Part shown: one piece after another, positions 24,101-58,600 of the stretch
Layout: each line of letters starts with the position of its first letter
Position numbering within the stretch: the first letter of the stretch is position 1
From: Laetmonice hystrix
Lineage: Eukaryota
Direction of reading: 5' to 3'
Length of the DNA: 60,000 nucleotides
Assembly (NCBI GenBank): GCA_965235115.1
Contig: OZ249436.1
Location: 34,164,001-34,224,000, forward strand
Notes under the pieces: model-generated
Told to the model about the DNA's origin: nothing
The model's input: the letters and a program-made list of their open reading frames with translations, nothing else
Databases searched by the model: none
Program-made: the position numbers and the translations under genes

Positions 24101-25115
24101 CACTTGTACCCTCTATACACATTGCCACAACAAATTAATGTTTCCATAGGTGAAAAAACAGTTATTTTCAGAGCAGTCAGCCAGCCCTAAAACAAGCTAA
24201 AACAAAAATGGGTGTGAAATGTTTTAAAATATGAAGCTGTCATGACCAAAAAAAGACAACGTGTTTGAGTTATTTTCAATTCTGTAATTGCGTTTTTTAT
24301 TAGAGATTAAAATTTAAAGGAGTGTAGTTTTTGATACATGCATCCAGCTCGACGCTACATGTTGTTGACAATATAGCCGTCAACTGTCAAATCGGCCGGA
24401 ACATATTGACATCCACAAATGGATTAAACAATCGTTGGTTATCAGCCTCTTGTGAAGATGCAACCAAGGGAATATGCGTCCCATCGATGTCAAGCACCAT
24501 ATTCCCACAGGAATTCAATTCTTTGATAAATACACCGGAACAGAAATAAAAATACAAAAGACTGAAGAGAAGAATGTAAAATAGAAAGAAAAATTTGACA
24601 TTGAAGTAATAGGAAATGTGACGAGTATGTCACAAGTCTAGTGGTGGTTTTGTGTGTATGTGGGAAGGGAGAATTCAAGTGGTAGAGGTTCTGCTTGCTT
24701 CTTGTATACCGTCATACATAACATCCAAATGTTATTACTTTTTATTAAATGCAGTCATTTTGAGAAAAAAAAGAAAATTCATGAAGCTTGATTCAAAGCT
24801 ATAATAAAATAACTTTGCTTATCCTTTTTTTCCTGGCCGTAAATCGTGTTTTTCTTTCTTAAATTGCAATATTGACACCGAGTGGACCTCAAGCAAGTTC
24901 ATGGCGACCATTAACCTAAGATACGATTTGGATGTGTTTGGGTGCGTGTACCGATAAGATGCATAGCCAGTAGCGTATTCTGAAAACCTGACTTAATGAG
25001 ACAGCTTCGACAGGTAAGTGTCAGGTGATTTGATATGACAGCTTACATATTTGCTATAGGTGAGCCGTCTAGGCACAAGGCAGTCCATGGAACTGCCTGG
25101 CCTCCTGTCTACATC

Positions 25116-29111: not shown

Positions 29112-30853
29112 AGATTGTAGGCTAGGTACGGACGTGGGGCAATTGGTACTTGGGAATGGTGGCGAAGGGTCGAAGGGCATGGTAACAGTATGTTAGATTG
29201 TAGGATAGGTACGGACGTGGGGCAGGCTGGTACAATACGTGGGGTAATTGGTACTTGGGAATGGTGGCAGAGGGTCGCATGGCATGGTAACAGTAGGTTA
29301 GATTGTAGGCTAGGTACGGACGTGGGGCAATTGGTACTTGGGAATGGTGGCGAAGGGTCGAAGGGCATGGTAACAGTATGTTAGATTGTAGGATAGGTAC
29401 GGACGTGGGGCAATTGGTACTTGGGAATGGTGGCAGAGGGTCGTAGGGCATGGTGATAGTATGTTAGATTGTAGGATAGGTACGGACGTGGGGCAATTGG
29501 TACTTGGGAATGGTGGCGAAGGGTCGAAGGGCATGGTAACAGTATGTTAGATTGTAGGCTAGGTACGGACGTGGGGCAATTGGTACTTAGGAATGGTGGC
29601 GAAGGGTCGAAGGGCATGGTAACAGTATGTTAGATTGTAGGATAGGTACGGACGTGGGGCAATTGGTACTTGGGAATGGTGGCGAAGGGTCGAAGGGCAT
29701 AGTAACAGTATGTTAGATTGTAGGATAGGTACGGACGTGGGGCAATTGGTACTTGGGAATGGTGGCGAAGGGTCGAAGGGCATAGTAACAGTATGTTAGA
29801 TTGTAGGATAGGTACGGACGTGGGGCAATTGGTACTTGGGAATGGTGGCAGAGGGTCGAAGGGCATGGTAACAGTATGTTAGATTGTAGGCTAGGTACGG
29901 ACGTGGGGCAATTGGTACTTGGGAATGGTGTCGAAGGGCATGGTAACAGTATGTTAGATTGTAGGGTAGGTACGGACGTGGGGCAATTGGTACTTGGGAA
30001 TGGTGGCGAAGGGTCGAAGGGCATGGTAACCGTATGTTAGATTGTAGGATAGGTACGGACGTGGGGCAATTGGTACTTGGGAATGGTGGCGAAGGGTCGA
30101 AGGGCATGGTAACAGTATGTTAGATTGTAGGATAGGTACGGACGTGGGGCAATTGGTACTTGGGAATGGTGGCAGAGGGTCGAAGGGCATGGTAACAATA
30201 TGTTAGATTGTAGGCTAGGTACGGACGTGGGGCAATTGGTACTTGGGCATGGTGGCAGAGGGTCGAAGGGCATGGTAACAATATGTTAGATTGTAGGCTA
30301 GGTACGGACGTGGGGCAATTGGTACTTGGGAATGGTGGCGAAGGGTCGAAGGGCATGGTAACAGTATGTTAGATTGTAGGCTAGGTACGGACGTGGGGCA
30401 ATTGGTACTTGGGAATGGTGGCAGAGGGTCGTAGGGCATGGTAACAGTATGTTAGATTGTAGGCTAGGTACGGACGTGGGGCAATTGGTACTTGGGAATG
30501 GTGGCAGAGGGTCGTAGGGCATGGTAACAGTATGTTAGATTGTAGGCTAGGTACGGACGTGGGGCAATTGGTACTTGGGAATGGTGTCGAAGGGCATGGT
30601 AACAGTATGTTAGATTGTAGGATAGGTACGGACGTGGGGCAATTGGTACTTGGGAATGGTGGCGAAGGGTCGAAGGGCATGGTAACAGTATGTTAGATTG
30701 TAGGCTAGGTACGGACGTGGGGCAATTGGTACTTGGGAATGGTGTCGAAGGGCATGGTAACAGTATGTTAGATTGTAGGCTAGGTACGGACGTGGGGCAA
30801 TTGGTACTTGGGAATGGTGGCGAAGGGTCGAAGGGCATGGTAACAGTATGTTA
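29112..30853. repeat. Minisatellite, 83-bp unit, 21 copies
   Basis: Unit agattgtagg(a/c)taggtacggacgtggggcaattggtacttgggaatggtggcgaagggtcgaagggcatggtaacagtatgtt. ORF-track starts are spaced 83 bp apart. Three 75-bp variants and one copy with a 22-bp insertion. Confidence 0.97.
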
Positions 30854-31140: not shown

Positions 31141-31845
31141 GTTTAGGTTTTGCGGAGTTCTATAGGAGCTGTGTGGAGTGGGTGTAGGTGTTAATGGGGA
31201 CCGGTTTAAGATGTGAAATGGTTTAGGTTTTACGGAGTTCTACACGAGCTGTGTGGAGTGGGTGCAGGTGTTAATGGGGACCGGTTTAAGATGTGAAATA
31301 TTTGTTATGATGAGTTTAGCTTTTGCGGAGTTCTACACGAGCTGTGTGGAGTGGGTGCAGGTGTTGATGGGGACCGGTTTAAGATGTGAAATATTTGTTA
31401 TGATGAGTTTAGCTTTTGCGGAGTTCTACACGAGCTGTGTGGAGTGGGTGCAGGTGTTGATGGGGACCGGTTTAAGATGTGAAATATTTGTTATGATAAG
31501 TTTAGATTTTGCGGAGTTCTATACGAGCTGTGTGGAGTGGGTGCAGGTGTTGATGGGGACCGGTTTAAGATGTGAAATGGTTTAAGTTTGCGGAGTTCTA
31601 TACGAGCTGTGCGGAGTGGGTGCAGGTGTTGATGGGGACCGGTTTAAGATGTGAAATGGTTTAGGTTTGCGGAGTTCTTTACGAGCTGTGTGGAGTGGGT
31701 GCAGGTGTTGATGGGGACCGGTTTAAGATGTGAAATGTTTGTTATGATGAGTTTAGATTTTGCGGAGTTCTACACGAGCTGTGTGGAGTGGGTGCAGGTG
31801 TTGATGGGGACCGGTTTAAGATGTGAAATATTTGTTATGATGAGT
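31141..31845. repeat. Minisatellite, 8 copies of 92-93-bp and 79-80-bp unit variants
   Basis: Unit gtttag(g/c/a)ttttgcggagttcta(c/t)acgagctgtgtggagtgggtgcaggtgtt(g/a)atggggaccggtttaagatgtgaaat, with or without atttgttatgatga. Starts at 31141, 31221, 31314, 31407, 31500, 31580, 31659 and 31751. Confidence 0.96.
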
Positions 31846-34527
31846 GACTGGATGTCAGGGTGGAGTTGATCAGTGGAGCCTGATAACTGCCACATGCATA
31901 TTACATGCTGCGTGCTGCCGAGGCGTATATCGACCTCAGCCCATGACGGCGGCCCTCACCTATAGTACAGTACAGATCCTTCCATTCACCCTAACCGTGT
32001 CATTGTGGGCAAATTATAAACTACATTTTTATTCAGCGGGTAACCTGTTATCTGCATGATGCCCATTATGTAATCCGTGTCTGATGCAGTTATCGTGTTT
32101 TTTAGAGAGTAATCTTTTTTCCTATTTGTGCCCCACTTGCCCAAGGGAACATCCTACACCCCACCCGGCTCGCCATAAAATATGTAGCACACTAAAAACA
32201 CAACTCAATGCAGAATTATTACGGATAAAACCCAAGCGAAAATAGCCCCATTAAATTTATTTGTTTTGCTTGTTTCTGGGTTTGACACCGATCGCAGTTG
32301 GAAGCAGTTGCCCCAAGCACGTTTTGTGCCAAATGTTTCATTTATTTATCGATGTCAGTTGGCATGATTTGCACGGAGGTGAGAGGCCAGGTGCCTTTGT
32401 GAAATATGTCAGGTTTAATTCGGCATTGTGCTATTCTCGAAGTATAGCATTGGATCAATGCCGGGATTTAAAAAAACCAATACGATGGGTGTATCTGTGA
32501 AATAGTTTTACACTGGGACGGAAAGAAAGAGGCCTAGGCCTATACCATTTCCGAGTCTCTGGCAGTACAGATTAAATAGAACGTTAGTAGTAGGCCTGTA
32601 TTATGTTAGTGGTGCTAATGGTACTTAATGAGGTCTCGACACTCGTATTGTACGCTGCCATGTGTGTACAACAAAACTGATACATTGTGGGGTACCCGGT
32701 ATGCTTTTACTTGACGATCGGATAGTCTAGAGTGTGGTTATTTTGCACACGCATTCTGTAGTATTTTTAATGTTTTCTGTTTTTCTATATGTTTAAACCT
32801 GACAAGGTGTGGATATGTTTCTGCGTGGATGTCTTACAATGTAAGACTTGATCCTCGTTGACACTGGGTCGATCGTATCCTCGGCTCAGGTCAACTGGTG
32901 ACGTGTGATGGGGACGAGGAGGCTGCTTGAGGAAGAGGAAAGTTTGGCCTTAGTTTTCACCGCCCCGTCAAAGATAGGCCGATCTTGTGCTAGACTCAGG
33001 TGTGTCTGGGGTGTGGGTGTGGGTGTGAGTCTGGGTGTGACTGTCTGGATCGCTGTATATATACGGGAGGGGTTGTCAAGTCGCTAGTATATAGCAAACC
33101 GCTGTCTATGAGATATACAATGTAGGCCTATACGATGCGGTGGAGCGCATCAGGGGGAGGGGTGGGGGTGGGGGCGCCACCCAGCGCGGTCCGGAGCCAG
33201 GGGAGGTCGACCCTCACCATGTCCTCCTTAATCGGGATCACCTCACCTGCTTACCTTACACAATAGCGACTGTTTACCTACACGGGGTCCATGTGCTCAC
33301 CGCCCCACACATACACGGTGTACACCCCATAGGCCCACCCTGGTACACCAGCCAGGCATGTGGCGGAGGATAGGGGCCCCCAGCACCGTGAGGCCCCCCT
33401 ACTCAGGGGTGGAGCACTCTGCAATATACCCCTTGCCCCACCCTGCATTACCCCACTACACCAACTAATTTCCCTCCCGCTGTTTGGTAAGAAAATATGA
33501 GGCCAGCTTTCAGCATCTGTGGGGGCCATAGGATCTGGTAGTCGGTTACATTTATCTAGGCTCTTCCCTCAATCTCCCAGCCAGACACTCTACACGGCCT
33601 ACGGACCTGACATCAATTATATCAGTCTTTTTTCCCCTCAAGCTCTTGGTGCCTTTGCGCAGAAATAAGCTTTTTTAATCTTAACCCTCAACTGGGCTGG
33701 GACACTGTTGAGTGCTCTGTGCTTGTATGTCTGAGCGCAGTTTGTACGTCAGTTACAAATTACCTTACGATGGAGAAGAAGTACTTGGAAGTGGTAAAAA
33801 GACAAGCCAGCAGAATGAAGCTGGGAGGGACACTAGTGAAGGCCCAGCTACAAAAGATGTGGGGAAGACTTAATGAGTTTAGCGGGAGACGCAAAGGGAG
33901 ACGGTAAAAAGCGGAGATGGGTAGGGGTGTCTGAGATATGGACTCTGTCTCCTATAGTCCGATCAATAATACAGAGCTGTCTGAGCGGGTTCTCACCTGT
34001 TTCTATGACACGAGTAACTGCTTGTGACATAATCATCAAATCTTCATCTCGCTTGGTGGCACTGCCGGGTCCTCAGCCCACACCCGACTTGTCACCCAGA
34101 CAGGACCAACTCACAAAGAACGGTTTCTGTTACCATGACAACATGATCGAAAAAAAACCTCCCAGCCCCGGTGGTGGGGAGCGGGGAATGCAGTATTGCC
34201 ATGCAAAGTTTTCTTTTCTTAGTCAGAATAAGAGAGAGGACACGTTTTCGATCAGCACCTAAAAATAATCATGTTTGACTGAGTACCATATTATATGTGT
34301 GGAGTTATATTTCCAGGGAGGTGATTTTTAAGGAGTCCTGTAGTGGCAGGCCACTAAACTGAAAATTTATTGAATATTCAGAAATGATGTAATATTCATA
34401 AACACTTTCAGGTGTTTCACGAAGCCGACAGCATTGCTGCAATGACTAGCATCAGTTATTTGATCTTGTGCCCTCGATCTTCAAGACCGTAGCATTGTTT
34501 GGTTTTGCTAGTCACAGTAAGTGCCAT

Positions 34528-34566
34528 CTGACATTGATACTTTTTCCTTCTCTTTTCTAGGTGAGT
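34528..34566 (+). other. Candidate recursive splice site (branch point, polypyrimidine tract, TAG|GTGAGT)
   Basis: ctgac (34528-34532), 19 uninterrupted pyrimidines ctttttccttctcttttct (34540-34558), AG at 34559-34560 directly followed by consensus donor GTGAGT. No other AG between branch site and acceptor. Confidence 0.5.
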
Positions 34567-36544
34567 CAAAGGTTTCCACCCGGTTGGAATTTGACAGTGA
34601 GTACAATCCGTAATTATAGGTATTGTATTGCCTTTCCAGACATAACATTGTTTGCTGCAAGGACAAGAAGCTGTCAGTTGAACGTAGTAAAAATCCGACT
34701 CATTCCAACATTACCTGAAAAGGGTCACACAAAAAGGGAGCAGGGCAGAGCCTTAAGGCCTGTTCTGTCACACAGTCAGCCGTCGCAATTTATGTAAAGG
34801 TGACTGAAAAAAAAGCAGCAAAGATCACTGAAGACTGACAATAAAAGAAGTCTTTCTACTGTCCATATCATTGTCTCAGGTGATCCAAAGGGCCTTTCAC
34901 CATAACTCAGGAACTCTTTGTGTAAAAAAATAACACCATCTCGCGGGGAAAAAGGGAATTGGGCGGGAAAAGAGGGCAAAAAAGGAGTCAGAATAGGATA
35001 TAAACAATGGCAGCTGTTGCTCAATTATGACAGTCACAGTATATGTAGCCACAAGAAGGACAAAACAAGCCTTGTGTGAAAAACATCAGTGTCATGGTAA
35101 AATTTTGTCAGAGCTAATGAGGGGCTGGGAATAAATCTGACAAACTCACTCCTATTCAACAAAAAGGACTCTAAATGGAATGCTTGAATTGTAAACTCCT
35201 GTAATAAGAGATTATGTAGGAAATGGAATGTTAGATTAGAACCATGCAGTTTGTATATCAAATTATAGTTGATATAATGAATTAAAATCGATGGCTAAAG
35301 ATCGGAGTTTAAGATGATTTGAATCGGCAGTGAATCATTACATGTGTGGCTAGAGTAAACAACCATTGCATGTAAAATATTTTAATAGATCAATAGTCAA
35401 TATGAGCTTAAAAAAGTAAAAAAAGACAGCTCTACATTTTTCACATGATGCTGAAATGGAGACGATGTATTCTTGCTTGTGTTGAGAAGTCAGATAGGTG
35501 ATTGGGGGTATAGAGTGGGCAAGGGTCAGGGGTGTGGGGTTCCAGCGGGGGTAAGGGTAAGACCGAAGTTCAAGGTGTTGGAGACTAGGATGGTGGGGCC
35601 GTTGACAGACAAGGTGGTGGCCTTGTTGTCGACATTTACATGCTAGTTTAACCTTGACTATAACCTTGACATCAGGGTGTGGAGCAGATGTCAGACCCAG
35701 CCCGTCAACCAGCAACGCCACCACGTCAGATAGGTGGCAGCAGCGTCGGCCCCTGCGGCGGAGGCCGTCTGTCCCGTACAGATCGTCATGTCAGTGGTGG
35801 TCTACAGTTATGTGGGTAGGGCAGAGTACCTAATGATCAACTTGACCAAAGAAACTGAGATCCTCCGGATCTTACCGTGCCAGGATAATGTTTTACATTG
35901 TCACTGGTAGATTACCCTGGATTGAAATTGAGAAATGAATCATAGGGGGGGGGGGGGTACTTCTGCTGCCTGGTCTGGGCTCATTTAAAAGATGTGAGAC
36001 TTAGAACAGTGGTCTACCAGTAAATTCAGTCTGTATAAATATAAATTCTTAGAATCTAAATCCAGATAACGTTAAAAGTGAGGGTGTGTGGGGATGGGGT
36101 GTGTGGTCTCAGCAGAGAACGCGACAAGAATTGTTTTTACACGGGTTATGTCAGGTGTTTTAGAAAAAAGTTGGCTTCAAAAGACCGGAATTATCTTAAA
36201 ATGTATAATTTACTTATAGTTGTGTTGTGCCTGTATTGGTTGGTGAGATATAATGGTGTTTATGGAGTAGTTTATAGTGATTGTGTGGCAGTATTGGCGA
36301 GGACGTGAAGGGCCTGTCTCGCCAGTGTTCGGATTGTAGTCTAGCCGTTTGACTGACAGTCGTTCACCTGGAGGTGGGCAAGGGGTTGAAGGTGTCGGCG
36401 CGGGGAGCAAAGGTGCTGCCACCTCCAGTCTGGCCTCCTGTCGGCCCTTGTCAGTGCTGCTCCCGCATCAACAGTCAGAGCACAGTGGGACGGCCGCCCG
36501 CCACAGCAGCAGCAGCCAGCCAGCCACGATACTGCTGCCAGAAG

Positions 36545-36545
<1 letters not shown>

Positions 36546-36587
<42 letters not shown>
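36546..36587. repeat. (CAG)14 microsatellite
   Basis: Perfect triplet run; a shorter CAG/CAGC run lies at about 36503-36525. Confidence 0.95.
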
Positions 36588-36590
<3 letters not shown>

Positions 36591-40563: not shown

Positions 40564-41306
40564 TTATTGGACCATAGGTCGAACCCAGGAAGTCGTGGCC
40601 AACCGTTATTGGGTCACATCACATGTTGAGCCATGGAAATCAGTGGTCATTCGTTATTGGGTCAAATCACATGTTAGTCCATGAGAATCAGTGGTCATCC
40701 GTTATTGGGTCACAGGTTGAGACCGAGGTCGGGGTGGACTCCTTATTGTGTCATATGTCGGATCAAAGAAGAGTTCAAGGAAGCAGCGGTCATCCATTAT
40801 TGGGTTATTGCCTAGTTATTGGGTCACAGGTTGAGGCCCAGGTAGTGGTTGCCTAGTTATTGGGTCAGAGATCCGATCTGTGAAGTGGTAGCTCGGACCG
40901 AGGAAGCAGTGGTCATCTATTATTGGGTCACAGGTTGAGGCCCAGGTAGTGGTTGCCTAGTTATTGGGTCATAGATCCGATCTGTGAAGTGGTAGCTCGG
41001 ACCGAGGAAGCAGTGGTCATCTATTATTGGGTCACAGGTTGAGGCCCAGGTAGTGGTTGCCTAGTTATTGGGTCATAGATCCGATCTGTGAAGTGGTAGC
41101 TCGGACCGAGGAAGCAGTGGTCATCCATTATTGGGTCACAGGTTGAGGCCCAGGTAGTGGTTGCCTAGTTATTGGGTCAGAGATCCGATCTGTGAAGTGG
41201 TAGCTCGGACCGAGGAAGCAGTGGTCATCCATTATTGGGTCACAGGTTGAGGCCCAGGTAGTGGTTGCCTAGTTATTGGGTCAAAGATCCGATCTGTGAA
41301 GTGGTA
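40564..41306. repeat. Tandem array: degenerate 41-54-bp monomers (40564-40815) followed by ~4.7 near-identical 104-bp dimeric units (40816-41306)
   Basis: ttattgggtca-like anchor at 40564, 40606, 40654, 40702, 40743 and 40797. 104-bp period starts at 40816, 40920, 41024, 41128 and 41232, each containing two anchors (41+63 bp). Confidence 0.94.
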
Positions 41307-42196: not shown

Positions 42197-42655
42197 CCCA
42201 TCCACTGTTATACGGCCAATGTTATATACGTGCCCCCATCCACTGTTATACGGCCAATGTTATAGACGTGCCCCCATCCACTGTTATACGACCAATGTTA
42301 TAGACGTGCCCCCATCCACTGTTATACGGCCAATGTTATAGATGTGCCCCCATCCACTGTTATACGGCCAATGTTATAGACGTGCCCCCATCCACTGTTA
42401 TACGACCAATGTTATAGACGTGCTCCCATCCACTGTTATACGACCAATGTTATAGACGTGCTCCCATCCACTGTTATACGACCAATGTTATAGACGTGCT
42501 CCCATCCACTGTTATACGACCAATGTTATAGACGTGCTCCCATCCACTGTTATACGACCAATGTTATAGACGTGCTCCCATCCACTGTTATACGACCAAT
42601 GTTATAGACGTGCCCCCATCCACTGTTATACGACCAATCTTATAGACGTACCATC
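42197..42655. repeat. Minisatellite, 38-bp unit, ~12 copies
   Basis: cccatccactgttatacg(g/a)ccaatgttatagacgtg(c)(c/t) repeated in tandem. Confidence 0.96.
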
Positions 42656-43120: not shown

Positions 43121-43961
43121 GTGTGCGTTGGGAGGGGGGGGGATTAGGGGTAAGATGTTGGTTTGTGAGTGTGTTGGGAGGGGGGGGGGATTAGGGGTAA
43201 GATGTTGGTTTGTGAGTGTGTTGGGAGGGGGGGGGGATTAGGGGTAAGATGTTGGTTTGTGAGTGTGTTGGGAGGGGGGGGGATTAGGGGTAAGATGTTG
43301 GTTTGTGAGTGTGTTGGGAGGGGGGGGGGATTAGGGGTAAGATGTTGGTTTGTGAGTGTGTTGGGAGGGGGGGGGTAGGGGTAAGATGTTGGTTTGTGAG
43401 TGTGTTGGGAGGGGGGGGGGGGGGGGTTAGGGGTAAGATGTTGGTTTGTGAGTGTGTTGGGAGGGGGGGGGGGTTAGGGGTAAGATGTTGGTTTGTGAGT
43501 GTGTTGGGAGGGGGGGGGTTAGGGGTAAGATGTTGGTTTGTGAGTGTGTTGGGAGGGGGGGGGGGTTAGGGGTAAGATGTTGGTTTGTGAGTGTGTTGGG
43601 AGGGGGGGGGGATTAGGGGTAAGATGTTGGTTTGTGAGTGTGTTGGGAGGGGGGGGGGGTTAGGGGTAAGATGTTGGTTTGTGAGTGTGTTGGGAGGGGG
43701 GGGGGTTAGGGGTAAGATGTTGGTTTGTGAGTGTGTTGGGAGGGGGGGGGGTTAGGGGTAAGATGTTGGTTTGTGAGTGTGTTGGGAGGGGGGGGGGTTA
43801 GGGGTAAGATGTTGGTTTGTGAGTGTGTTGGGGGGGGGGGTTAGGGGTAAGATGTTGGTTTGTGAGTGTGTTGGGAGGGGGGGGGGGTTAGGGGTAAGAT
43901 GTTGGTTTGTGAGTGTGTTGGGAGGGGGGGGGGGGTTAGGGGTAAGATGTTGGTTTGTGAG
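43121..43961. repeat. G-rich minisatellite, ~18 copies: constant 36-bp core plus variable-length poly-G
   Basis: ttaggggtaagatgttggtttgtgagtgtgttggga followed by a G run that varies between copies. Confidence 0.96.

Positions 43962-47890: not shown

Positions 47891-47941
<51 letters not shown>
47891..47941. repeat. (CTG)17 microsatellite
   Basis: Perfect triplet run. Confidence 0.95.
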
Positions 47942-47943
<2 letters not shown>

Positions 47944-53500: not shown

Positions 53501-55036
53501 TGTATAGCCCATAGGTAATGACAGCACTGCTAGAATAAAGGCACCCATTAGATGAACGACTTGAAATGATTGAAATGAATAGAACCTCTCTTCTGGAAAC
53601 TGAAATTGATACTATTAACTTTAATGGTTCACCCTAAGTGAGGGGACCAAACGCTGTAACACTTTATCCTGAGGGGTTTTGTCATAACGTCTCCTGAGAT
53701 AACTTTTTGTCTCTATGCCGCAAGGGCCGTTTAATTCGAGACTAAACCAAACAAAAATAAAAGCTTACTTCAATTTGATTAAAGTTTTTTTGGGGTACGC
53801 TTATGAAAAAGAATTGTTTGGATATTCGGTTGTGACTGGTTTACAATGACCTTTTCCGAAGATGTCATTAAAAAACCGAAATATGTTCCACTTATCTTCA
53901 TGCTTTCTTTTTCTTCTTTCTCCTTCGAACTTTCGAAGCCTTGATTTCATTTTCCAAATCATACCATGTCGACTGAGTAAGAGGATCCAAAGCACACCCT
54001 GACACCGGCAGGCCAGTCGCTTATTCGATGTTATAAGATAATTATAAATCATTTTTTAAATTGAGTGCTGTGGTCCCTTAGCTAACCGTGTGAAGATTTG
54101 ATATCCTCAAGTCGCCTCTCCTCTAACTGACATCTTCTAGAAGATGGCCATGACAGGTCTGGGCCTTTGCCATGCGATGCTGGAGGCCAAAACGTCTTAC
54201 CACTGATCGGCTAACTCTTGGAGGAAAAGGTTTAGGAGCATTTCAACTCAGACCTATGTGATGGAGCCTGTCATCTTATGTGACAGCCTCCTCTGAGCAA
54301 GGCTGTTTTCGTCAAAAGAAAAGTAGTGACTGAGAAGAATCAGACCCCGCTGAGGTGATGTTTTAGTCTGTGGAACATAAGATAAATTTATGAAATGGGC
54401 ATCGAGCGGTAAAACGGCACAAGCAGAAATATTGCAGAACTTTAAAAAATGCTAAGATAGGATTTGCATCAGTACGGAGGATGGGGTTTCCGTTTTTGAT
54501 GCCACAAATCACTTTCTTTATCGGTCAGCAGTAGGATTACTTCCATGTTGTGTAGGATTCTGATTTTCGAACGGATCGACAAATGCTACCAGTAAGTAGT
54601 GGCAGAATGTGCCGTCCAGACATCTTGATCCAAAAGGGTAATAAATTAATGGTAATATCTGATTATTTTACAATTCAAATCACCATTCTGGCCAATAACC
54701 AGTTTGAGAACTGTCTTTGTGTTATTTTAATGATCCATACACTCCCTGTGTCCAAGGTCGTGGGACACCCTGTACATATAACGTAATTTGTTCAGAAGCC
54801 ATTAGTAAGATGTTCCCAGCATGAACTTTACGTTTTTAAAATATTGATTCTCTTTATATCTTTTTTCAATCAAATTGTAGAATGCAGGACATGGATGTTG
54901 AAAATGATAAAGGTCATGAATAACTACTAAATAACTACTAAAAACAAACTACACAAAGGGATACATAGTAAACCTGACAGGGCTCCGAGAACTGTTACTG
55001 TTCAAATTCTGTTTACAGGAGAATGGGGGTACGTAG

Positions 55037-55636
55037 TACGGTGGCCCAGAAGTACAAACTGCTGTACTTCACAGACAATTCCTTTGCTTCACAGTGAAAT
55101 TCCTTCAATTCACAGTGAAATTACTTGTCTTCACAGACAATTATACTTCGCTTCATTTGCACTGTCAAAGTCCTTGGCTTCACAGTAGAAGTCCAGGGGG
55201 TGTTTCAATATATGCGTCGGACCGTCCGACTGGCGAGGGACACTCCGTCGCTTGGTTGTTGGGCCTGCAATTTTTGGTCCGTCGCCGGTCGGACGGTCCG
55301 ACGCGCTTATTGAAACACCCCCTGGTCTTCGCCCTGAAATTTTTGGACTTCTCAGTTATTTCAATTCCTTGTCTTCTCAGTCAATTTCTTGTCTTCTCAG
55401 AAAATTCTTGTGAAGCGAAGGAACTGTATGTGAGGGTAAGGAACTGTATGAGAAGGCAAGGGATTTGCCTGTGAAGAACAAAAAACTCAGTGTGAAAGCC
55501 AGGAATTCCACTGTGAAGCGAAGGAATTCCACTGTGAAGCGAAGGAATTTCACTGTGAAGACAAGGAATGTCACTGGGAAGCAAAGGAAGTTCAAATTGA
55601 CTGAAGTACAACAGTTGGTACTTCTGGGCCACCGTA
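55037..55636. mobile_element. Non-autonomous DNA transposon (MITE) with ~35-bp TIRs and inverted arrays of ~21-bp subterminal repeats
   Basis: Left tacggtggcccagaagtacaaactgctgtacttca versus right tgaagtacaacagttggtacttctgggccaccgta (reverse complement, 2 mismatches). Left-arm repeats cttcacagtgaaattcc are mirrored by right-arm repeats ggaatt(c/t)cactgtgaag. Confidence 0.92.
55194..55324. mobile_element. 131-bp hairpin MITE nested inside the 55037-55636 element, 3-bp GTC duplication
   Basis: cagggggtgtttcaatatatgcgtcggaccgtccgactggcga pairs with tcgccggtcggacggtccgacgcgcttattgaaacaccccctg. GTC flanks both sides (55191-55193 and 55325-55327). It interrupts the host's 21-bp repeat array. Confidence 0.9.
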
Positions 55637-58600
55637 GTACGGCATTTTATTTCTGTATTTCCGACATAGCAAATATTACGAATCCCGTGGAAAAAAATAT
55701 ATCATTTACCTGCCATAGTTGATGTATTCCATGTATCCTATCAACATTGTTAAAACTTAGCATTCCAAAAAAACATCGCACGTCACGGCATCAACATCAA
55801 GAAATAAGCGTGTCATTTATTGAGGTCAAAGTAATGCACATTTAAAATTGTTATTTTGAATGACAAATTGAAATTTAATTTATCGTTGTGATGTACATTT
55901 GTATTTACTGTTGTAATAGAGTACCTTAACGATGTTAATTTTCAACATAATGAAATCTAGTTGACGTATAACGATATTTTGAAGTAGCAGCTTCAGTCCA
56001 GAACAATTCGTTATAAATCATGTTTCTTGCGAGAAGCCTGCATATGTCAAACTCCTGCTATAGTTTACAAATGATATACATTTGGCAAAGTCTGATTTCA
56101 TGAAGACGATATTTCGTAAATATATGTGAATTTATAAGATGAAGGCATTCGAGGGTTTTTGCCTGGCATATTTACGTGCAAATGGTGTGAAATGAAGTTT
56201 ATTGCTCAAACAATATGTCTTAATGAAATTGTCAGCTGGGTGAGGTTGCAGTGACTGGTTGATCATAGGAGCACAAAGGAGGAAAGAGGCGGCGGCAGGG
56301 AGACCGAGGTTTGGGATGCTAGAGACACTCTCTGATTAAGGCAACCACTGATAGTTCATTACAGCCTCCAATACTTCATCAACACAACCAGAGCATCAGC
56401 ACCCAGCTGACTGCCACCAGATTTTACCACTCATAGCTGTCCAGGCCCAGCGAAATGAGAACGACTAAGGAGGGTAATTAGAACTGCAGTCATTAAGGTA
56501 AATCTGACTGAAGGAATCTTGACTACTGATTTCCCCACCCCGGGCACCAAACCCTCATCAGACGTCTATCTGGAGTTTTTTTTAATCACACAAGTACTTT
56601 TTCCTCCTTCAAGAGGCAATCCTAAAGGAGTGCAGGACAATGGCAGGTTTGCACTCTGATGTAAACGGCACCTGTAATTGCGGGGATACTGAGATGGGTG
56701 TGTCAACATCACGCCATACCTTCATCATTTGCCCCCAAACAAAACTACATTTCAGGCTAACATTCTCTGTGTTCAGTCAGCACCGTCTAACGTTGCATAC
56801 AGGGGGCAACATGAGTGGAAAATATGAGACCTCTAGGGGTTTTTTTTTGAAAGAAAAAAGTGTTGATGTGAAGAGAGATCGGTGAGATCACACTTGTGGG
56901 CTCGGGTTGTTGGCATTAGACGAAAGGTATGAAGGTGGACGGGGGCCAAGCCATCGGGACACATCTTTAGACAACATCACGGCTCTTTGTGGCTGGCACA
57001 CCGGGCTGAAACCTCAGCCTGCACCCGGCTGAAACGGGATCTCCACTGTAAACAGCACCATTGTGGCACTGCACGGTGATCCAATGGCTCGTTGATTGGC
57101 ACCAGCCAGGGCTGGTTGGGTCTCACTGATTGAGGAATGGCCTTAAATAGTTGGTCTTGGTTTTACCCAATCTATACACCTCACATGTACTTTGTAGGTG
57201 GGATTTTTACATTTATATTATAATGACAGTGTTAACCTATTCCAGGTACTCAACGAGGAAATAATCAAACAATCGATGTAGAGTTTTGTCCCTTCTCTCT
57301 GTACTTCAGTAGAGGGTAAAATAAAAGTGACTTTATGACATTTCTTTAAGAGGGTCACTTATAAGGTGTCCCAAATGGGCGGACTAACAATATTTTAGCA
57401 ATGATAACACTGTGTGGTGGCAAGTTTAAAAAAAAAACATGACCACACATATCGTGTTGCGAGCGGTTATTCCTTTAAAAACAGTCCCCATACAATGGTG
57501 TTTATTTTTAAATTTGTCAATAAGAAACTGGTTAGAATAATTGTTTCAAGGTCTGCTGATATATCATAATTACTGTTCAAACTCACTGGTGGTCCTTTAG
57601 CCTACAGCCAATAAAAAAAGTATGAAATCTATTTTTTGAGTGTGAACCCCTTATGGCTGAAGCTCTTAAATAATGTTAATTTCACACTAATATGACAGTA
57701 ATGATGACCTGGTGTACCTCTTGATTCTAACCCTTACTGGCCTGCATGCCTCCTATTACACAAAGAAATCGTTTCAAAGTGTTTTAAGTATGAAATACAC
57801 TGGAAACTTACCAGGGGTACCTTGTGACCAGCTGTTCAACATCATCAGCTTCATCATTGCACGTCACCAAGTGTATCCTGTGCTGACCCTATAGTAGAGG
57901 GTAAAGGTTGGGCAGGGTATACACTTGGGGTAGAATGACCCTGGACGATTACAAACTGATCCCTCTATGTCCCAAGATGGAATGAATTTATCATCTTAAA
58001 TGACTACTGAAAGATCCATGGTAGTAATTTTCTCCCCACCCCTTCCTGCTGGTCGCCAGACCTGATCTTAATATTTGTCAGGTCAATAAGGAAAAGAAAA
58101 AAAGGTGTCGGGGGGAAAGGGGGAAGCTTGTGGCAAGGGGTTTGGTAAGCAAACAAACAGGGGTTAGGTATCTAATGAAAGGCGGCCACCATGTAACCCA
58201 ACCCATGTGTCAATTTCAGTGCGAGATGAGCTGCTGAGTGAAACTGTAGGAAAAGCAGGTCTGTAGGGCTGTGGCACAGACGGCGAGTAAATCACATGGA
58301 AAGGGATGATCAATGAGTAGGGAGGAAGGAGGAGATTTGTCAACTTGCCAGGCTGAAACAAGAGGAGAATTTGGGTATTTGAAGTGGGTGGTGGTGGCGG
58401 GCGTGGTGGTGGACAGGGTTCCATTTGAAACATCATCTGTGCCTCCCTCCACCCCCACCCCCACCCCACACACCATGGCCTGGGTGGACTGTGACATGCT
58501 ATAGACTCTGGACAGAGAGAGAGAGGAACTGGCAGTAACGTATCCCTGCGGGACAGTCGTCATGCGTACATTATGACCGCAGCCATACGTCGTGTGGACG

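Follow-up and report, generated by a model that had tools for sequence, protein, structure and literature searches.

The window (the whole 60,000-nt stretch of DNA that was analysed) contained one plus-strand site with the sequence layout of a ratchet point for recursive splicing. By analogy with Drosophila, we considered it somewhat probable that the segment 34528-34602 would act as a ratchet point with a cryptic RS-exon of 36 nt inside a putative long plus-strand intron. A strong 3' splice site abutted a strong 5' splice site, the pyrimidine tract had TT at -5/-6, the predicted branch A was at -30, and a short exon was closed by a weaker donor, all of which were characteristics of ratchet-type sites. 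The motif was real and was far rarer than chance in a single window would allow for. Both the layout and the rarity of the site were established. The branch motif, the AG-free zone and the TAG followed by GTGAGT, which had been described in a first-pass annotation of this DNA, were all present. That annotation contained neither the second donor at 34597 nor several features resembling those of an ordinary exon, namely a donor-like hexamer at 34517, an acceptor at 34638, a 78-codon frame and an AATAAA.

Anatomy and rarity of the site

On the plus strand, the site began with CTGAC (34528-34532), a predicted branch-point-like motif whose A at 34531 was at position -30, that is, 29 nt before the acceptor G. 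A YTRAY motif within the branch range was found at 20% of the window AGs. The motif was located in an AG-free zone of 37 nt (34522-34558; the last AG upstream was at 34520-34521), and zones of at least this length preceded 10% of the AGs in the window. The zone ended with a pure pyrimidine tract of 19 nt at 34540-34558. The length and the place of this tract were as first described, but the count included the T of the TAG (18 nt plus the TAG). The acceptor AG (34559-34560, in TAG) had the top score among 7,141 AGs on both strands. It was immediately followed by GTGAGT (34561-34566), the candidate ratchet donor, which scored 6.5 bits and ranked 20 among 7,577 GTs. The candidate cryptic RS-exon (34561-34596) had a length of 36 nt, a multiple of three, and was therefore frame-preserving; it was stop-free in two of three frames. 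It was closed by a second donor, ACA/GTGAGT at 34597-34602, that was weaker than the fused one (2.4 versus 6.5 bits). As a background for this candidate RS-exon donor, a GTRAGT was present 20-100 nt downstream of 175 of the 5,755 AG positions (3.0%).

The 201-nt region of the site did not fold better than its shuffles (z -0.3), and the hairpin across the 36-nt candidate exon was not significant (z -1.05 versus shuffles). Just past the second donor, a plus-strand hairpin at 34593-34636 spanned a third, weak donor-like element (the fold of 34593-34639 had z -2.69, the only one among four short folds to stand out), TAG/GTATTG (34620-34625, -0.6 bits), which would make an exon of 59 nt. Additionally, the site was flanked by a direct repeat of 30 nt (34434-34463 and 34652-34681, 77% identity), which might be the remnant of an old local duplication; among 155 control windows, 2 scored as high. 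A copy of a splice-junction minisatellite ('mirage') was not supported, since no tandem array lay over the site. The exact 31-nt pattern of the site had no match in the JGI metagenome contigs, where animal DNA was not expected.

On both strands of the 60-kb window, this was the only site recovered by any of five motif definitions. Markov nulls were generated with 400 simulations each of order 2 and order 5. In these simulations, the loosest definition (16 of 20 pyrimidines plus YAG/GTRAG) was expected 0.13-0.29 times per window, the definition with 18 of 20 pyrimidines 0.013-0.028 times, and the one with 19 of 20 pyrimidines and GTRAGT 0-0.0025 times. When the branch motif and the AG-free zone were added, such a site appeared in 0/400 simulations. 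An empirical juxtaposition null gave from 0.46 (loosest) to 0.003 (strictest) expected sites per window, and the stricter definitions overall corresponded to 0.003-0.07 chance sites per window. Taken over all nulls, the range was 0.013-0.07 with 18 of 20 pyrimidines and 0-0.003 for the strictest definition.

The strict definitions were picked after the site had been seen. Therefore, all sites were also scored with a generic matrix to reduce this bias. The matrix consisted of log-odds from approximate metazoan frequencies and was neither trained on the species nor tuned to the site. It assigned 16.8 bits to the site and 5.9 bits to the runner-up among 595 AG/GT sites, a gap of about 11 bits. 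No block shuffle reached the score of the site (0/300 with either of two block sizes). When real acceptor contexts were permuted against the real hexamers that follow AGs, 2 of 5,000 permutations reached it (p about 0.0004).

These values bear on a rival explanation, unlikely in our estimate, in which the motif arose by chance or is unused and lies in intergenic or antisense DNA. The loose definitions yielded 0.13-0.46 chance sites per window, and pyrimidine runs are commoner in real genomes than in shuffles. Moreover, the site was drawn from a very large scan of very many windows and the matrix was a generic one, all of which counted against the ratchet reading. An antisense background of about 0.1 per 100 kb, given for a score threshold of 80% in PMC2773006, is also consistent with chance. 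On the other hand, the 11-bit lead over the runner-up and the p value of about 0.0004 in a permutation that preserved the real tracts argued against it. The branch position and the downstream donor fitted as well, although they were outside that score, and the site was neither part of a tandem repeat nor copied elsewhere in the window.

Proposed splicing steps and exon-like features

If the ratchet reading is correct, then by analogy with Drosophila exon definition of the segment 34561-34596 would come first, set by its strong acceptor together with the second donor (34597). An upstream exon, probably located outside the window, would be joined to 34561 via the branch A at 34531. This joining would restore exon/GTGAGT, which would beat the weaker ACA/GTGAGT, and a second splicing step would take out the 36 nt and the remaining intron. 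Since the second step would remove the 36 nt, the site would leave no trace in the mRNA. The donor at +37 was indeed the weaker of the two (2.4 versus 6.5 bits), as the donor-competition model demands. It has been reported that fly ratchet points need a cryptic RS-exon and that the stronger ratchet donor wins over the exon donor (PMC8605326). According to the same source, the cryptic RS-exons of flies are generally out of frame, whereas the 36-nt exon keeps the frame, which counted against the ratchet reading.

Another point against it was that the ratchet model had no explanation for the GTAAGT at 34517, the acceptor at 34638 and the 78-codon frame with its AATAAA. The donor-like GTAAGT (34517-34522, context ACA/GTAAGT, 2.9 bits) was located 44 nt before the exon start and 14 nt from the branch-like A at 34531. 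In the window background, a GTAAGT-type hexamer was found 30-70 nt upstream of 82 of the 5,755 AG positions (1.4%). On the other side of the exon, a moderate acceptor-like CAG (34638-34639, 3.8 bits) would end a 43-nt intron begun at 34597, and a downstream donor and acceptor of such a kind were present at 6/5,755 AG positions. The open frame of 78 codons (34561-34797, with the TAA stop at 34795-34797) began at the first base past the acceptor. It was followed, about 40 nt past the TAA, by AATAAA at 34840-34845, a possible polyadenylation signal with T/GT-rich sequence after it. Frames of at least 78 codons followed 7.8% of the AGs in the window, and a long frame with AATAAA within 300 nt was found at 69 of 5,755 AG positions (1.2%). 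The 78-residue frame had no Pfam match and no homologue at E<=0.001 among 1.84 billion representatives, and 0/18 candidates among longer proteins were found at E<=1.

Because a donor was located 44 nt before the 36 nt and an acceptor 43 nt after them, they could be an exon between very short introns. Accordingly, we considered an ordinary exon that opens by chance with GTGAGT, in a coding or a non-coding transcript, and judged it as unlikely as a chance motif. Such an exon could be internal and 36 nt long, possibly between introns at 34517-34560 (44 nt) and 34597-34639 (43 nt). Alternatively, it could be a last exon that carries the 78 codons and a poly(A) signal. Both putative short introns had GTRAGT donors, pyrimidine-AG ends and similar lengths, and annelid introns can be very short, with a median of 57 bp given for Capitella (10.1101/2020.05.07.078311). 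Additionally, a GTRAGT both upstream and downstream was seen at just 6/5,755 AGs, and the low frequency of a long frame with AATAAA (69/5,755) also favoured such an exon. However, this explanation would leave the GTGAGT at +1 as a separate coincidence (which we put at about one exon start in 700), and the 78-residue frame had no homologue in any search run. There was no strong acceptor upstream of 34517 (none within the top ten of the window), and each of the three frames, read by eye, had a stop no further than about 70 nt upstream of it. Moreover, the distance between the donor at 34517 and the best branch motif was only 14 nt, and the features that supported an ordinary exon had been chosen post hoc.

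The two stretches of 43-44 nt around the 36-nt exon had weak local similarity only (p=0.02 for their middles). A multi-exon coding gene with introns of 43-44 nt was not adopted and was kept as a rival only, its 5' part having neither a strong acceptor nor an in-frame start. A trans-splicing acceptor was thought unlikely, as annelids appear to be without trans-splicing according to a passage in the literature.

Compared with the plain ratchet model, an RS-exon whose expression is regulated would explain a larger share of the local features. Namely, the ratchet donor would be used in some cells, and elsewhere the 36-nt exon would be kept or the transcript would terminate at 34840. The 36 nt were frame-preserving and open in two of three phases, the 78-codon frame lay at the acceptor and was followed by AATAAA, and expressed RS-exons are known in fly Ubx and in mammals (PMC8605326). 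However, the 78-codon frame was without a homologue, the exon donor was much weaker than the ratchet donor, and the additional features were post hoc, with backgrounds of 1-8%. Expressed RS-exons were also a minority in flies, with <50 cases versus >500 (PMC8605326). We rated this possibility as very unlikely, and rated equally low a splice-or-stop switch in a spiralian in which one acceptor would have three fates, namely re-splicing from the regenerated donor and onward through a giant intron, inclusion of the frame-preserving 36 nt, or a last exon of 78 codons that ends at the poly(A) signal near 34840.

The base rates of enriched motifs in long introns, as given in PMC2773006, favoured the reading as a ratchet point whose 36-nt exon is skipped. 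A rough posterior for a ratchet point ranged from 0.34 to 0.99 and was mostly 0.6-0.9, with inputs that were guesses rather than measurements.

Genomic context and strand

The window had a GC content of about 45% and contained several minisatellites and two MITE-like elements. None of its 708 stop-to-stop ORFs of at least 40 aa outside tandem arrays passed the Pfam cut-off, and no Rfam family was found in it at the gathering threshold. Two Pfam matches, to NKAIN (E 0.0014) and to a NUMOD-like family (E 0.0088), were below the threshold and fell in low-complexity sequence. An exon scan of the window returned 13 weak candidates (9 on the plus and 4 on the minus strand), none of which was convincing. 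The Pfam (0/708) and Rfam results thus left two options for the window, a very long intron or a gene desert, and short or untranslated exons may be present in it. The earlier description of this DNA as apparently exon-free agreed with these scans, but went further than they do, since an ORF and Pfam scan would overlook exons that are short, untranslated or fast-evolving.

The window yielded no host exon, and the site could be intergenic or within a minus-strand gene. This counted against the ratchet reading, and the lack of gene context in the window favoured a chance motif. The weakness of the strand indicators was a further point against a plus-strand intron. AATAAA was counted 26 times on the plus strand and 42 times on the minus strand (p=0.07), GTAAGT 16 and 9 times, respectively (p=0.23), and the T/A skew of the window was not significant. 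Of the 51 1-kb bins that were free of repeats, 38 had more G than C on the plus strand, and only the first 5 kb were clearly C-rich. Both transcription and replication were candidate causes of this skew. Since invertebrate coding strands are described as C-biased at transcription starts (PMC3315797), the excess of G could equally indicate the minus strand.

There was no second co-oriented AG/GT site above the null, as the next plus-strand site had 4.7 bits versus a null median maximum of 7.4-8.0. A chain of co-oriented ratchet points was ruled out, because the other sites scored under the null maximum. Therefore, unless exons were overlooked, the lone site would imply flanking segments of at least 34 and at least 25 kb. 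The first-pass annotation had placed the window in a giant plus-strand intron removed stepwise. The sequence fitted a fly-type ratchet point even better than had been claimed, with the A at -30, the TT and the weaker donor. On the other hand, the intron itself found less support, given that no host exon was detected, that the strand indicators were non-significant or ambiguous, and that no second co-oriented site exceeded the null.

Several other elements were observed in the window. Within 250 nt of the site, the minus strand had the second-best AG/GT (5.9 bits, under the null maximum) and a strong acceptor (10 bits) at 34716 and 34805, 89 nt apart. At 25012-25065 on the plus strand, AG/GTAAGT was followed 46 nt on by TAG/GTGAGC with a poor pyrimidine tract, and the spacing of this pair (a donor, about 45 nt and an AG/GT) was that of the main site. 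A MITE-like element at 1220-2081 had inverted arms of 198 nt (84% complementary) with 466 nt between them. Nested inverted repeats at 55032-55641 had outer arms of 40 nt (93%), subterminal arms of 21 nt and an inner hairpin with 54-nt arms (55188-55330), and looked like a foldback or MITE element. G-rich minisatellites were located at 29237-30853 (unit 83 nt), 31141-31845 (79-93 nt), 40816-41306 (104 nt), 42197-42649 (38 nt) and 43123-43961 (47 nt), and the three largest were G-rich on the plus strand. Perfect (CAG)14 and (CTG)17 tracts, at 36546-36588 and 47891-47942, were 11.3 kb apart on one strand and could pair in a transcript.

Known counterparts and significance

The closest counterparts of the site were the ratchet points of Drosophila, such as Ubx-RP, kuz, Bx and luna. 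They share with it a pyrimidine tract fused to YAG/GTRAGT, TT at -5/-6 and a branch-like A at -30, as well as a short exon with a weaker donor (36 nt here versus about 50 nt in the fly). Of 197 ratchet points reported for the fly, 196 had TT at -5/-6, and fly branch points were located between -36 and -21, most often at -30 (10.1101/006163). Among the 539 fly sites in the S1 table of PMC6110457, AGGTGAGT was present 51 times and AGGTAAGT 37 times. The segments between fly ratchet points had a median of 16.4 kb and a range of 2.6-63.6 kb (10.1101/006163), so the segments proposed here (>34 and >25 kb) would belong to the upper part of that range. In contrast to the Drosophila sites, the exon here keeps the frame, an additional donor is located 44 nt upstream, and the site is single in 60 kb. 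Moreover, the evidence for the Drosophila sites includes junction reads, lariats, conservation and a saw-tooth pattern of coverage, whereas the present site is a candidate from its sequence.

Motif-level evidence from invertebrates other than Drosophila was also comparable. Table 2 of PMC2773006 gives a 4- to 22-fold sense-strand enrichment of ratchet-type motifs in those introns of insects and sea urchin that exceed 50 kb. Their sense-strand density in such introns was 0.48-2.2 per 100 kb in bee, sea urchin, beetle, mosquito and fly, versus an antisense density of about 0.1 per 100 kb. The sites of sea urchin, bee, beetle and mosquito resemble ours in resting on the motif in a non-Drosophila invertebrate, and one site in about 60 kb fits the densities in that paper (0.5-1 per 100 kb). 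However, those sites were found in annotated introns with a genome-wide antisense control, while ours is one site without annotation, and no spiralian was among the species tabulated there. In the long introns of vertebrates, the same paper gave no enrichment of the motif (ratio <=1.5). Vertebrate RS-exons, as described in PMC6224609 and PMC8605326, resemble the candidate exon in opening with a regenerated donor and having a competing donor downstream, and they include both cryptic kinds and expressed kinds repressed by the EJC. Our literature searches found no report of recursive splicing in spiralians (annelids, molluscs or others), the broad ones being limited to the top-ranked matches.

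The earlier statement that such a site would be notable in a non-model invertebrate was too strong, because PMC2773006 had already described motif enrichment in long introns for sea urchin, bee, beetle and mosquito. The novelty would thus be modest; judged from the sequence, the site was a good candidate of a known kind. A single candidate site adds little by itself. Were it in use, the site would represent a ratchet point from outside arthropods and vertebrates. Should the splice-or-stop switch prove true, recursive splicing would be present in a third bilaterian superphylum and would be tied there to alternative termination. Finally, a spiralian case in use, together with the enrichment in sea urchin and insects, would suggest that the stepwise removal of introns is an old bilaterian trait that was largely dropped by vertebrates.
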